Virus record (IMG/VR): IMGVR_UViG_2609460125_000009
Reading direction: 5' to 3' (one strand)
Source: a virus
Taxonomy: Duplodnaviria; Heunggongvirae; Uroviricota; Caudoviricetes
Length of the DNA: 64,000 nt
Positions 22,884-25,918 of this stretch are shown here, piece after piece (the stretch's first letter is position 1; every line of letters begins with the position of its first letter). The notes beneath the pieces are model-generated. The model did no database searches. It saw only the letters and a program-made list of their open reading frames with translations, and was not told the DNA's origin. A program made the position numbers and the translations under genes.

Positions 22884-23082
22884 GCGGGAGAAGGAAACGC
22901 TTCATGAAATCAGTAAGTGGCCGGAGTTCCCTGAGTACTGGAAGCCTAAAACGCGGGCTAAGTTAGAGCGGTTAGGGTTGGTTGCAAACGTTTCTGAAAC
23001 GTGGTGTTCGGCCAACTACCAGTTAACTGATAAAGGGAAAGTATTGCTACAGCAATTAGTAGAATCAGGAGCGTTAAAATGA
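22867..23082 (+). CDS. hypothetical small protein
   Basis: 71-aa ORF overlapping both neighbours. Confidence 0.35.
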   Translation: MIVLSKREKETLHEISKWPEFPEYWKPKTRAKLERLGLVANVSETWCSANYQLTDKGKVLLQQLVESGALK

Positions 23083-23231
23083 TTCCATACATCTCATTAG
23101 CTTTTATGGGTGGCTTCCTTATCGGCTTCGGCATCTGTCGTGATTTAATTAAGCAGGAACTTAAAACCAAAACACTGTGCATCGGAAAGCGTGTGTATCG
23201 GGTAGTTCATGAAACAAAGGTTAGAAAATGA
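23079..23231 (+). CDS. small membrane protein (50 aa), paralogous to the ORF at 22704
   Basis: Shares GFLIG...RIYRIVE / RVYRVVHE with the 59-aa protein; start overlaps the previous stop (ATGA). Confidence 0.35.
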   Translation: MIPYISLAFMGGFLIGFGICRDLIKQELKTKTLCIGKRVYRVVHETKVRK

Positions 23232-23518
23232 GCAATTTAACTTCTTGGGACTGGTGGTTGGCCACCTATTTCTTAGCGGCCGGAGTCGCATTCGCCTTTT
23301 ACGTAGGTCAGTTAGTCGTAAAACTGCTGCTGATTAAATTTGCCAGTCATAAACGTATCGATGATGGTCTGTGGCGTCTTGGCACCCTGGTGGAAACTCG
23401 CTACGGGCAACTTAAGGAGAACGAAACCATTACTATCCAAGCGAAACGATTCACTGCCACCATCACAAGAACACCTAGTCGTAGAGTGGCCTTGATCAAA
23501 AAAGTCACAACCGAATAA
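23228..23518 (+). CDS. membrane protein
   Basis: 96 aa with an N-terminal transmembrane helix; start overlaps the previous stop. Confidence 0.4.
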   Translation: MSNLTSWDWWLATYFLAAGVAFAFYVGQLVVKLLLIKFASHKRIDDGLWRLGTLVETRYGQLKENETITIQAKRFTATITRTPSRRVALIKKVTTE

Positions 23519-24294
23519 AAACATGGTGATAAGTATTTACTTACTTATCTTTTATGTATAAGATGACTTTGTTTTCGTTGAGACGCGACTGTTTGAACTT
23601 AAATACAAGTGCAAACGAAGAAGTCTATCTGGCAGTAGCCTAATAAGCCAAACACCAGCGAGGTCAGTTTCCAGCCTCGTTACCGAAATGGGACACACTG
23701 AGCGAGTGTGATTGCAGAACGCAGGAGGGAACATTCATGTTCCCTCCGATGAAGTAACAGAATGGGCGGTTGGTATATTTTCAACTCCATATGACTCCCG
23801 GATTCTTAGCCACTGACCGCCCATCCTGTTACGTCATTTTGTTCAATTATGTCGTTTATACTGGGTTAAAAAGCGGCGACGTAGCCCGGCTGGTATGGTT
23901 AGCCAGCACACAACGTTGAGGCCATTACATTTTTATCAATTCTAAGGTTCTATTCACAGAGATACCGGCGAGCGTTGATATGTAACATGTTGGGCAAACA
24001 TTCAATCGGAGTAGTGGCCTCAACGTTGTGAAGACAGGATTGTTGTGTAGGTTTAACCACTGTTGCCATTGGTGCCTGTTTTCACAACAAATGATTCCAT
24101 ACATCACATTGTATAAATTACAAAGTAGGTGCTGTCCTCAGAAACATCATCTACTTAAAGATTTTGCCTTCTATTGAGCGAAGTCGAAAACGTCTGGCAC
24201 TAACGGAAAGTGCAAGTAGCGGTGTGTTTCCTGGCAGAAACTAACACCGCCGCGATTGGCACTGTTGAGTAATAAATACTGGCAGTGCTGAATT

Positions 24295-24369
24295 GATGGT
24301 GTAGCTCAGCGGTAGAGCAGTTGGCTGTTAACCAACTGGTCGGTGGTTCGAATCCACCCACCATCGCCA
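24295..24369 (+). tRNA. tRNA-Asn (anticodon GTT)
   Basis: Cloverleaf reads directly: acceptor GATGGTG/CACCATC, D-arm GCTC...GAGC, anticodon arm GTTGG-CTGTTAA-CCAAC, T-arm GGTGG-TTCGAAT-CCACC, discriminator G, encoded CCA. Confidence 0.85.
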
Positions 24370-24374
24370 ATTTA

Positions 24375-24461
24375 GGGGAGTTAGTCCGTAGAGGTAGCGG
24401 GGTAGACTGTAAATCTACTGTCATTGCGACTCGGGTGGTTCGACTCCATCACTCCCCACCA
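24375..24461 (+). tRNA. tRNA-Tyr (anticodon GTA), long variable arm
   Basis: Acceptor GGGGAGT/ACTCCCC, anticodon loop CTGTAAA, long extra arm, T-loop TTCGACT, encoded CCA. Confidence 0.8.
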
Positions 24462-24465
24462 AATT

Positions 24466-24541
24466 GCCGGTTTAGCTCAGTTGGTAGAGCGCCTGCCTTG
24501 TAAGCAGGATGTCAGCGGTTCGATCCCGTTAACCGGCACCA
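24466..24541 (+). tRNA. tRNA-Thr (anticodon TGT)
   Basis: Acceptor GCCGGTT/AACCGGC, D-arm GCTC-AGTTGGTAG-AGC, anticodon arm CCTGC-CTTGTAA-GCAGG, T-loop TTCGATC, encoded CCA. Confidence 0.85.
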
Positions 24542-24905
24542 ACACAACAGGTAAGAGCATTGGGCGAATCGGCGATACTGACCCACAAGCCCGTAAATCG
24601 ATAGAGTCAGACCAGTGCTCTTACCGTTGTGAGGAAGTGCAGCTCTTTGAAGCAACCAGAAGATAAGCATCTGGCTTCACAACACAACGATAAGATCATT
24701 ACGGTTAATCGTCGTTCATGTGCACAATGACTGGTCGAAAGGTAGTGATCTTACCGTTGTGGTGGATTCGCAGACTGATGCGATAGCTTTCTTGGATGTT
24801 AGGGAAATGCGGCCGCAAATCTTCCCTTTCGCGAGCGGTGATCGTCCGTAGTCCTAATTGGCTGCACCGTATGCCGGAGATTCAGTACCGGCCACCACAA
24901 CGGCC

Positions 24906-24992
24906 GGAGAGTAGGGAGCATGGTGCTCAAGCGGTCTTGAAAACCGTCCCATTGCGCAAGCGATGATGGTTCGATTCCATTACTCTCCGCCA
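24906..24992 (+). tRNA. tRNA-Ser (anticodon TGA), long variable arm
   Basis: Acceptor GGAGAGT/ACTCTCC, anticodon arm GCGGT-CTTGAAA-ACCGT, long extra arm, T-loop TTCGATT, encoded CCA. Confidence 0.8.
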
Positions 24993-25147
24993 GACACAGC
25001 GTTGAGCGGTTTGGCCTTTTAATCACCCAGATTAAGACTCCGCTAACATAAACCAGACCGCTCAACGCTGTGATAGACAATTACGGCAGACGTTCTTAAC
25101 CATAGCTTGCTAACATCCTAGCAACACTTTTTTTCAGCGCAAAATTC

Positions 25148-25170
25148 AAAGGGGCTTCGGCCCCTTTTTT
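25148..25170 (+). terminator. rho-independent terminator
   Basis: GGGGC-TTCG-GCCCC followed by TTTTTT. Confidence 0.8.
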
Positions 25171-25213
25171 GCAACTGAAAGAGTCAAGTCTACGAACTTT
25201 GTAGGAAGAAATA

Positions 25214-25564
25214 ATGACCAGCAAAGATAACACACCACTAAAAGTCACCCCTGAACACATTGAACAACTCATTCAAAGTGAACATTATTTCACTGCATAT
25301 GATGCCAGCCACGGGGATAACTTCATCTCCGTTTACAATTCAAAAACAGATATCGACAAATGTCATGAGTCGTTAAAACTCTTAACGTTCTGCGTTATGG
25401 TTCTCAAAAATGGATATACCGTAACGGGAAAATCTGCGTGCGTAAGACCAGAAATCTTCAACTTTGATGTTGGTCGCGAGTACGCTCGAAAAGATGCTAT
25501 CGATCAAATCTGGCCCCTGGAAGGCTATCTCCTGAAGCAAAAGTGGCATGAGGCAAAGCAATGA
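25214..25564 (+). CDS. hypothetical protein
   Basis: 116-aa ORF with RBS AGGAAG; stop overlaps the glutaredoxin start. Confidence 0.45.
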   Translation: MTSKDNTPLKVTPEHIEQLIQSEHYFTAYDASHGDNFISVYNSKTDIDKCHESLKLLTFCVMVLKNGYTVTGKSACVRPEIFNFDVGREYARKDAIDQIWPLEGYLLKQKWHEAKQ

Positions 25565-25806
25565 CGATCACTATCTACGGACGAGATAACTGCTCATTCT
25601 GCAAACGTGCGGTCGAGCTGGCGAAGCAACTAAAGGGACATGGCTACGGTGATTATGAGTACATCGACATCACCACTGCCGGTATCGACAAGGAAAAACT
25701 AAGTGAAATTGTTGGTAAACCGGTAGAGACTATCCCCCAAGTGCTGATCGATGGCCAACCGATTGGCGGATACACAGAACTGGCTGCATACGTCAGCACC
25801 CTCTGA
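25561..25806 (+). CDS. grxA: glutaredoxin (Grx1-like)
   Basis: Active site CSFC in a YGRDNCSFCKRA context and a C-terminal GKPVETIPQVLIDGQPIGGYTELAAY that closely parallels E. coli glutaredoxin 1 as I recall it. Confidence 0.85.
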   Translation: MTITIYGRDNCSFCKRAVELAKQLKGHGYGDYEYIDITTAGIDKEKLSEIVGKPVETIPQVLIDGQPIGGYTELAAYVSTL

Positions 25807-25808
25807 TT

Positions 25809-25836
25809 TTAACGGCTCACAGGAGCCGTTTTTATT
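25809..25836 (+). terminator. rho-independent terminator
   Basis: AACGGCTC-ACAG-GAGCCGTT followed by TTTATT, immediately after the glutaredoxin stop. Confidence 0.75.
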
Positions 25837-25885
25837 CCCACCAAACTCACTCCCGTTTCCCTTAAAATTCAAAAAACAACGTCAA

Positions 25886-25918
25886 AATGATTCCATACCT
25901 ACTATGTATGGAATCATT
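25886..25918. promoter_or_regulatory. lox/dif-like candidate recombination site (13-bp perfect inverted arms AATGATTCCATAC around a 7-bp spacer)
   Basis: AATGATTCCATAC-CTACTAT-GTATGGAATCATT lies about 100 bp upstream of the tyrosine recombinase gene. Confidence 0.4.

Follow-up and report, generated by a model that had tools for sequence, protein, structure and literature searches.

The 64,000-nucleotide stretch of viral DNA considered here (IMG/VR record IMGVR_UViG_2609460125_000009; we call this whole stretch the window) carries a gene, int, for a tyrosine recombinase, and just in front of that gene lies a perfect palindrome in which two 13-bp arms enclose a 7-bp spacer. We think, with a probability of roughly 60%, that this palindrome serves the recombinase (Int) as its core recombination site, that the most likely job of the pair is the resolution of plasmid multimers, and that isolated copies of a single arm elsewhere in the region, which we call half-sites, are likely to be extra places for recombinase monomers to bind, a view built on sequence comparison and on analogy with better known systems. 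The window itself is a phage-plasmid of the SSU5/pHCM2/pMT1 type: the region is 98% identical to that of Escherichia phage Cyrano (pLF82), an SSU5-like phage-plasmid, and its gene order is shared with Salmonella Typhi pHCM2, Yersinia pestis pMT1 and the Klebsiella phage-plasmids.

The palindrome and its recombinase

An earlier note on this DNA had pointed to a 13-7-13 inverted repeat about 100 bp upstream of the recombinase gene, and that is indeed what the window contains, with a left arm at 25886-25898, the spacer CTACTAT at 25899-25905, a right arm at 25906-25918 and 98 bp between the end of the palindrome and the ATG of the recombinase at 26017. The exact 13-mer occurs five times in the window, twice in the palindrome and singly at 23078-23090 and 24090-24102 on the plus strand and at 31937-31949 on the minus strand, against a chance expectation of about 0.002 (128000/4^13, for 128 kb of two-strand sequence), and we therefore reject a chance origin; the mean of 2.05 obtained by shuffling refers to matches with up to two mismatches, while all five arm matches are exact. 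In four of the five, the arm is part of the 15-mer AATGATTCCATACAT, and all three of the single ones run on as AATGATTCCATACATC. As to the single arms that the earlier note had placed at 23079 and 24092, they are exact copies and are followed by ATCTCAT and ATCACAT just as it had said, with their true starts one to two nucleotides away (23078 and 24090); both are real, but the note had overlooked the exact copy at 31937-31949 on the minus strand of dnaE and a decayed copy within int.

Int, with 367 aa, has the signature, the fold and the catalytic residues of the tyrosine recombinase superfamily, from which strand exchange is predicted. It matches the Pfam family Phage_integrase (PF00589) with E=2.9e-10 and 40.6 bits, above a cut-off of 27.1 bits, and in a 34-sequence alignment R185, R284 and Y316 never vary and K211 and H307 hardly do, the first His of the HxxR motif being replaced by Arg (R281) in seven aligned members of the family. 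The AlphaFold2 model (mean pLDDT 85, pTM 0.77) is entirely helical in its N-terminal half, after which comes the catalytic domain, and its fold matches comprise lambda Int, Tn1549 Int, Xer, IntI and Cre, all with a probability of 1.00, the best being the lambda Int core, Tn1549 Int and Xer (E ~2e-6 to 1e-5), with Cre structures at ~1e-2. Comparison with PDB sequences gave nothing at E<=0.01, Cre included. The family has a sharp boundary: a search of 5.8 billion sequences returned about 113 clusters at 44% identity or more, all of the named ones from enterobacterial genera, and the next matches beyond, at no more than 34% identity, are P4-type integrases that carry the arm-binding domain PF13356. 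This domain is absent from the Int family, nor does the model contain a beta-sheet arm domain, and the nearest sequence relatives are lambda/P4-type integrases at ~25-34% identity (NCBIfam PRK09692, PHROG 1). Because of these relatives, the missing PF13356, and the model with its fold matches, we place Int in the lambda/P4 lineage as a two-domain protein; judged by sequence and predicted structure, it is an enzyme of that lineage cut down to the layout of a 'simple recombinase' and apparently provided with a lox-like site.

The palindrome follows the recombinase gene across its homologues. In all 48 of those that we took from separate species, with recombinases 44-100% identical, a palindrome stands 70-180 bp before the gene, its arms 11-16 bp long and its spacer always 7 bp; 41 of these palindromes are perfect and the other seven contain one or two asymmetric mismatches, and the same palindrome with a 7-bp spacer was present upstream of int in every phage, plasmid or metagenome relative examined. 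Changes in the arms are symmetric between homologues, giving ATTCCATAC or ACTCCAGAC, and two arm classes, TGATTCCATAC and TGACTCCAGAC, track the protein phylogeny, the two positions at which they differ being changed in both arms. The first class is that of the phage-plasmids with 56-100% identical recombinases and of one Chimaeribacter paralogue, and the second is found in Pantoea, Erwinia, Rahnella, Hafnia, Photorhabdus, Xenorhabdus and a Providencia phage-plasmid, while the palindrome of Biostraticola has one arm of each class. Three Chimaeribacter genomes even possess two recombinase paralogues apiece, on different contigs that are probably separate replicons, and with different arm classes. 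A homologue of the helix-turn-helix (HTH) gene that adjoins int in the window is its neighbour in only 6 of the 48 loci, and in Pantoea the neighbours are unrelated genes such as pagP and those for TonB-dependent receptors, so that the recombinase gene is the only constant partner of the palindrome.

The spacer keeps its length while at least nine sequences for it occur among close relatives, and it can even differ in orientation between identical flanks, reading CTACTAT in locus L090 and ATAGTAG in PhiR41_1 (locus L002), both of them E. coli elements. All of this (the fixed length, the many sequences and the two orientations) would be expected if the partner of each site is another copy of the same site. 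In PhiR41_1 the arms of the palindrome are 17 bp long (3999-4039 of L002), and when set against L090 the locus looks as if the 7-bp loop had been turned round in place. To us, the palindrome reads as a lox-like core site and almost certainly as the DNA target of the neighbouring recombinase, both its binding and its recombination being predicted from these comparisons. The architecture of Cre/lox or Xer/dif sites that the earlier note had seen in it is thus apt insofar as the palindrome behaves as a core site beside int, and inexact insofar as the spacer has 7 bp and not 8, and the protein is not Cre-like.

As for what the site might be good for, its distribution is instructive. The int gene is found on 934 plasmids of PLSDB, 900 of which are typed as non-mobilizable, and among the int-bearing plasmids listed there most are phage-plasmids of ~100-115 kb; more distant copies belong to megaplasmids of Pantoea and Rahnella and to pPAU1, a Photorhabdus plasmid of 29 kb. 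The region of the site occurs in 214 of 5426 complete E. coli genomes, in all 214 on a plasmid, once per genome and never in the chromosome, and a 37-bp stretch with the site is present exactly once per plasmid in 180 plasmids. A single, plasmid-borne site per replicon is what characterizes plasmid resolution sites, and since the site is also always extrachromosomal, the conversion of multimers to monomers would be its likeliest job; a role as dimer resolvase, one of the options in the earlier note, is one that this distribution would fit.

By analogy with Cre/loxP, Flp/FRT and Xer/dif, we envisage that one recombinase monomer would occupy each 13-bp arm, that two sites would come together in a tetrameric synapse, and that strands would be exchanged across the 7-bp spacer, turning multimers back into monomers as Cre/loxP does for P1. 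The int gene and its site would then constitute a self-contained module that moves among plasmids, megaplasmids and SSU5-like phage-plasmids, and the isolated 15-mers (an arm plus AT(C)) would each bind a single recombinase monomer without recombining.

Features around the proposed recombination site, in coordinates of the window (a dot marks features given without a strand)
Feature	Position	Strand	Remarks
Half-site A	23078-23092	+	AATGATTCCATACAT, whose ATG starts an open reading frame of 50 aa
Half-site B	24090-24104	+	Intergenic, upstream of the tRNA cluster
A/T-rich element	25863-25885	.	AGAwTTyAAAAAA-like; 10-24 bp left of the palindrome, loosely conserved; left edge of the conserved module
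Palindrome, proposed core recombination site	25886-25918	.	Perfect 13-7-13: AATGATTCCATAC-CTACTAT-GTATGGAATCATT
Putative sigma-70 promoter of int	25943-25971	+	TTGATC, 17-nt spacer, TAATAT; downstream of the palindrome; read from sequence
LexA (SOS) box	25971-25990	.	TACTGTTTACTTATACAGTA; canonical; overlaps the -10 element of the putative int promoter
Tyrosine recombinase gene (int)	26017-27120	+	367 aa; helical core-binding and catalytic domains, no arm-binding domain
Half-site D, decayed	26623-26634	-	Inside int; TTGATTCCAAAC here, TTGATTCCATACATC (intact) in most other lineages
HTH 'putative repressor' gene	27115-27501	-	Convergent with int, 6-bp overlap (27115-27120); context only
Half-site C	31935-31949	-	Antisense inside dnaE, over the codons for GCMESL

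Half-sites at a distance and the control of int

The isolated half-sites that the earlier note had noticed have proved real, being conserved at the same positions across lineages with flanks of only ~78% identity, and at synonymous positions as well. They recur at matching places in Cyrano, pHCM2, Klebsiella, Enterobacter, Kluyvera, Buttiauxella and Y. pestis, and they are positioned alike in distant phage-plasmids whose recombinases are 59-79% identical to the Int of the window. Half-site A keeps its place in Cyrano, pHCM2, Klebsiella, Kluyvera and the lineage L152 and is degenerate in the Kp59 clade, whereas half-site B, which forms an island of invariant columns in a non-coding alignment of 67% mean identity, is present in every lineage with ATTCCATAC arms and reads TGTGATTCCATAC in the clade where the arms of the palindrome are TGTGATTCCATAC too. 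A promoter overlapping half-site B was considered and rejected, the TATAAA of the window not being conserved in relatives. For half-site C, 14 nt are invariant in 62 distinct 5' sequences of dnaE (minimum 78% nucleotide identity), with a third-codon entropy of 0 against a regional mean of 0.85 bits; the dnaE loci were collected by six peptide patterns, and the one that covers half-site C was back-translated degenerately, so that it does not fix the synonymous positions.

Wherever the arm stands alone it is followed by ATC, bar a few ACC or ATT variants at individual sites, and this triplet was seen at neither end of the palindrome spacers examined. We also looked, by inspection, for a second arm 7 bp beyond each half-site, and rejected this idea when nothing conserved was seen there, degenerate arms included. 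On these two grounds we read the half-sites as non-recombining; most likely each would bind a recombinase monomer without taking part in strand exchange, and we suggest for them a role in regulation or in DNA architecture. We conclude, as far as conservation can tell, that they are functional elements specific to this lineage of phage-plasmids. At all four sites the type of arm agrees with the side of the palindrome, left-type copies being found on its left and right-type copies on its right, an only weakly significant pattern, and in Cyrano an 11-mer of the arm is confined to 37.8-47.0 kb, within ~6 kb of int (104.7 of the 108.4 kb examined).

The putative promoter of int is conserved in Klebsiella, pMT1, pHCM2 and other lineages and scores 8/12, which is under the threshold of the consensus scanner. 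Since the palindrome sits ~25 bp upstream of the proposed -35 element, it may also autoregulate int. The LexA box on this promoter is the only CTGT-N8-ACAG in the whole 64-kb window, and it is conserved in most of the lineages that have half-sites, namely pHCM2, pMT1, Klebsiella (with Int of 82% and of 59% identity), L155 and L156, and is absent from L152 and from the upstream regions of the ACTCCAGAC class that we read (Pantoea, pPAU1 and the Providencia phage-plasmid). Ciprofloxacin is reported to induce Cyrano (PMC9928086), and the HTH protein is small (128 aa) with no peptidase-domain match, and for these reasons SOS-driven int expression reading into the convergent repressor gene might, as pure speculation, be part of the route of induction. 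Our literature search found no description of how SSU5-like phage-plasmids are induced. One could go further and suppose that SOS-induced Int doubles as a regulator, binding the half-sites once LexA has been inactivated and thereby shaping early lytic expression or replication, or looping with the palindrome, and that this, together with antisense transcription from int into the repressor gene, is part of the switch between lysis and lysogeny; this is a tentative thought, and we would not bet on it. In Cyrano a second LexA box lies upstream of a gene for a LexA-like S24 peptidase (record position 89277).

Weighing the explanations

It must be said that several observations count against a resolution site with accessory monomer-binding sites. 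The splitting of plasmid multimers is probably the role of the palindrome, yet it is deduced solely from where the site occurs, and natural products of recombination have not come to light, there being no record with two sites and no cointegrate junction in the 180 plasmids; cointegrates with two sites were looked for there as such and had to be dropped. SOS control of the predicted kind is not typical of housekeeping resolution systems. Half-sites occur in phage-plasmids only, with no single copies in the megaplasmids, in pPAU1 or in the Providencia phage-plasmid, all of which carry the palindrome, and since the megaplasmids and the Providencia element have the palindrome alone, the half-sites are not needed for core function. 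The co-variation of half-site B with the arms represents a single evolutionary event. Finally, phage SSU5 is without int, palindrome and HTH gene, and still has half-sites A and C exactly and B with one mismatch, a pattern that may leave room for a different factor reading the half-sites; because SSU5 is very close to pHCM2, the loss is possibly a recent deletion, and as a test of int-lacking relatives it is too near pHCM2 to inform, SSU5 being the only such case (pJN2-26 carries int).

Among the other explanations, the one we take most seriously, unlikely as we find it, is that the palindrome and the half-sites are operators and nothing else, through which a protein of the Int fold regulates, recombination having been lost or become secondary. 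There is precedent in MrpR of SPbeta and SroF of phi3T, prophage repressors with a recombinase fold, and both are among the fold matches of Int, at ranks 35 and 40. The palindrome lies directly 5' of the putative int promoter, single sites lie in or beside early and replication genes, and the LexA box predicts SOS control of int in a group where Cyrano is ciprofloxacin-inducible (PMC9928086), all of which would suit a regulator. Yet R185, K211, R284, H307 and Y316 are kept across the family, true recombinases are far better fold matches (E ~1e-6 vs ~1e-2), the arms have the geometry established for the recombination cores of Cre, Flp and lambda Int, at 20 bp from centre to centre with a fixed 7-bp spacer, and most family members are on megaplasmids where the palindrome is their sole site. 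We are slightly more doubtful of the idea that only the palindrome matters and that the half-sites are relics of old recombination between it and secondary sites, or sequences preserved by coding constraint alone. Such relics would account for left-type copies on the left and right-type copies on the right, as insertion into a full site would leave them, and many family members do lack half-sites, while half-site D has decayed in the E. coli lineage; on the other hand, relics would hardly include 14 nt that stay invariant, synonymous positions among them, in 62 dnaE sequences down to 78% identity, nor an invariant island in non-coding DNA (half-site B) that co-varies with the arms, nor a conserved ATC extension.

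Less probable still is that the palindrome is the core of a phage attachment site (attP) for integration at a chromosomal site such as a tRNA gene, one of the activities that the earlier note had offered for the recombinase. The closest relatives of Int by sequence and fold are, to be sure, integrative enzymes of the P4/lambda type, which have a 7-bp overlap region, and tRNA genes do lie ~1 kb upstream in the window (that the recombinase was said to lie 'just downstream' of them is loose, the last tRNA ending at 24992, ~1 kb and two genes before int). Set against this, the 214 E. coli occurrences are all outside the chromosome, 44 loci (the four SSU5-like ones set apart) are free of tRNA genes for 10 kb around int, Int has no arm-binding domain, the arms are perfectly symmetric, the Cyrano copies of the 11-mer arm all cluster near int, and the presence of at least nine spacers among close relatives in the same hosts disfavours a fixed chromosomal partner; on the first two of these counts we rejected attachment at a tRNA. 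An explanation at the level of RNA seems to us every bit as improbable: the palindrome would be a terminator or processing hairpin, and transcripts with half-sites A and B would pair with the mRNAs of dnaE and int (C and D). As RNA the palindrome does form a hairpin with a stem of 13 bp (-16.2 kcal/mol, z = -6.5), on the transcribed strand copies A and B are the complements of C and D, and symmetric changes in the arms would preserve a hairpin just as well. It nevertheless lies upstream of the putative int promoter, with left neighbours that vary in identity and orientation among relatives, and it tracks int in unrelated plasmids that have no A-D sites; Rfam recognized no RNA family besides tRNAs. 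A terminator we could reject outright, the upstream gene having a separate one at 25811-25830 and the palindrome no T-tract after it. Least likely of all is that the adjacent HTH repressor (27115-27501), and not Int, binds the palindrome and half-sites in the manner of the P1 C1 operators, which are known to be asymmetric and scattered. Its gene adjoins int in all SSU5-like phage-plasmids, but 42 of 48 palindrome loci have no HTH homologue within 10 kb, the motif is missing from its own promoter region, where another palindrome, GGTAAGTGCTTACC, is found, and half-sites 20 bp apart from centre to centre would in general be unusual for a small HTH dimer; on the first two counts we rejected it as the binder.

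Known systems, cargo and neighbouring genes

How, then, does this pair relate to recombinases that are already understood? It resembles Cre/loxP of P1, Dre/rox, Vika/vox, Nigri/nox and Panto/pox in being a simple two-domain recombinase with two 13-bp arms beside its own gene, and Cre/loxP of P1 in particular in having one site per replicon on a phage-plasmid, with multimer resolution as a likely purpose. P1 is not known to have dispersed half-sites. The layout typical of Cre/lox is therefore present, two domains and a palindrome with ~13-bp arms by the gene, and Cre homology and the 8-bp spacer are not: the spacer here has 7 bp, no sequence similarity to Cre is detectable, and the fold is nearer to the lambda Int core, Tn1549 Int and Xer. 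Published mining for Cre-type enzymes asked for homology to Cre and/or a spacer of 8 bp (PMC4957104, PMC10250229), and for that reason would not have reported a 7-bp site. Nor are we looking at Panto/pox from Pantoea, an identity we considered and rejected, Panto being 41% identical to Cre and pox 13-8-13 and rox-like. The heterobivalent integrases of lambda and P4, with their 7-bp overlap region, are nearest by sequence and fold, and differ in having PF13356, in having weak and imperfect core repeats plus arm-type sites where Int has a perfect 13-bp palindrome, and in their tRNA association, Int being extrachromosomal and without one. Of the traits that define that class, Int lacks the arm-binding domain (no dedicated search for arm-type repeats was made) and chromosomal integration.

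Resolution systems of plasmids provide a further set of comparisons. ResD/rfsF of F, Rsd/crs of the Salmonella virulence plasmid and XerCD at cer/psi share with Int the single site per low-copy non-mobilizable plasmid and the recombinase beside its site; the D protein (ResD) of F is reported to act as a repressor too. Xer sites have an 11-6/8-11 structure and employ host enzymes and accessory sequences, whereas here no sites for accessory proteins were identified besides the loose A/T-rich element, and, unlike dif, whose consensus bears by eye no resemblance to this site (no formal comparison was made), the palindrome is always accompanied by a recombinase gene of its own. TnpI/IRS of Tn4430 and Flp/FRT have extra copies of the recombinase motif besides an inverted-repeat core, DR1 and DR2 in IRS and a third 13-bp repeat in FRT; those extras are directly beside the core, unlike the single copies here, which are 0.7 to 6 kb off and in or beside other genes. 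The Rci/sfx shufflon of R64 has a 7-bp spacer and one conserved 12-bp arm per site, and so recalls our isolated copies of an arm plus the start of a spacer, but the putative spacers of these copies differ from one another and from that of the palindrome, and inversion of the shufflon kind could be dismissed, there being no polymorphism, with int upstream of dnaE on the same strand in all loci that have both. With the IntI/attI integron it shares a LexA box on the int promoter, a site upstream of int and variable cargo on the far side, and it departs from the integron platform in that no attC-like sites or motif copies flank the cargo.

Taken together, by sequence, model and analogy, the system would appear to work like Cre/loxP or the plasmid resolution systems, while belonging neither to the Cre family nor to the heterobivalent integrases. 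The pair of recombinase and palindrome is ordinary in principle; it is the conserved half-sites at kilobase distances and the LexA control that are the unusual parts, for which we know of no counterpart in Cre/loxP, and half-sites kept at synonymous positions hint, along with that control, at an extra role. Searching the literature for the motif strings retrieved unrelated primers only, and the phage-plasmid papers mention recombinases in general terms only. If our assignment is right, this would be a widespread and previously uncharacterised family of recombinases with their targets, the gene being on 934 PLSDB plasmids that include pMT1 and pHCM2 and the region of the site in ~4% of complete E. 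coli genomes, with a probable stability function for medically relevant phage-plasmids. With its compact 33-bp site and 7-bp spacer it would also furnish a candidate tool for genome engineering that may not cross-react with Cre-type systems, and a natural specificity pair, two arm positions apart, for studying how such enzymes read DNA.

The variable cargo deserves a closer look. It occupies a hotspot between the glutaredoxin gene and the palindrome, empty in the window (25807-25862) and filled elsewhere, as in L001 (14360-15200), L005 (1-2370) and L012 (7191-8652). Cyrano has a highly expressed moron in this place, Klebsiella and Enterobacter a YafO toxin with a colicin-immunity gene, PhiR41_1 a GadW-like regulator and pMT1 the caf1 F1-capsule operon. 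The breakpoints had seemed to lie at the edge of the palindrome, which raised the idea that the recombinase inserts cargo there, but when left flanks were grouped across ~85 loci the A/T-rich element proved to be loosely conserved 10-24 bp further left, no motif copies bound the cargo genes, and homology between the window and Cyrano ends inside the 3' end of the glutaredoxin gene; we rejected insertion, and for these reasons homologous module exchange explains the hotspot better. Near the glutaredoxin gene, ~1-3 kb upstream of int, there are also Acb2/Tad1-hairpin and Tad2-like anti-defence genes in the related phage-plasmids L153 (8422-8667) and L155 (7043-8784).

On the plus strand around the palindrome the genes are those for a DNA ligase, three small open reading frames, four tRNAs (24295-24992), a Gp49-family protein and glutaredoxin, and further 3' come the recombinase, CobT- and CobS-like proteins and DNA polymerase III alpha (dnaE, 31684-35202). 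No terminator was seen between int and the HTH gene, which overlap. Between the HTH gene and a gene for 70 aa (27753-27965), which point away from each other, lies a region of 250 bp (27502-27752), in a layout that resembles a cI/cro-type switch, and this region contains a promoter-like site on the minus strand (27575-27548), the palindrome GGTAAGTGCTTACC at 27533-27546 and extra GGTAAG/CTTACC half-copies. Interleaved with the tRNA genes are four long-stem hairpins of 85-130 nt (23905-24035, 24541-24634, 24676-24772 and 24993-25078), which start with CACA(A/G)C and end with G(T/C)TGTG, fold with -35 to -48 kcal/mol (z -4.5 to -11 vs shuffles) and match no Rfam family, although parts of the first are conserved, in relatives such as pHCM2, SSU5 and those of Klebsiella. 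Another non-coding element, the strongly conserved block CGTCTGGCACTAACG-AAAGTGCAAGT at 24192-24222, lies ~100 nt 3' of half-site B and ~75 nt 5' of tRNA-Asn; it is common to the window, pHCM2, Kluyvera, Buttiauxella, SSU5 and Klebsiella relatives and might serve the tRNA cluster as a promoter or in processing. Lastly, dnaE is split into two open reading frames in some relatives (L014 at 14949-18010, and the dnaE regions of L152 and L153), and in an Enterobacter plasmid a gene for a NUMOD4/HNH homing endonuclease interrupts it.

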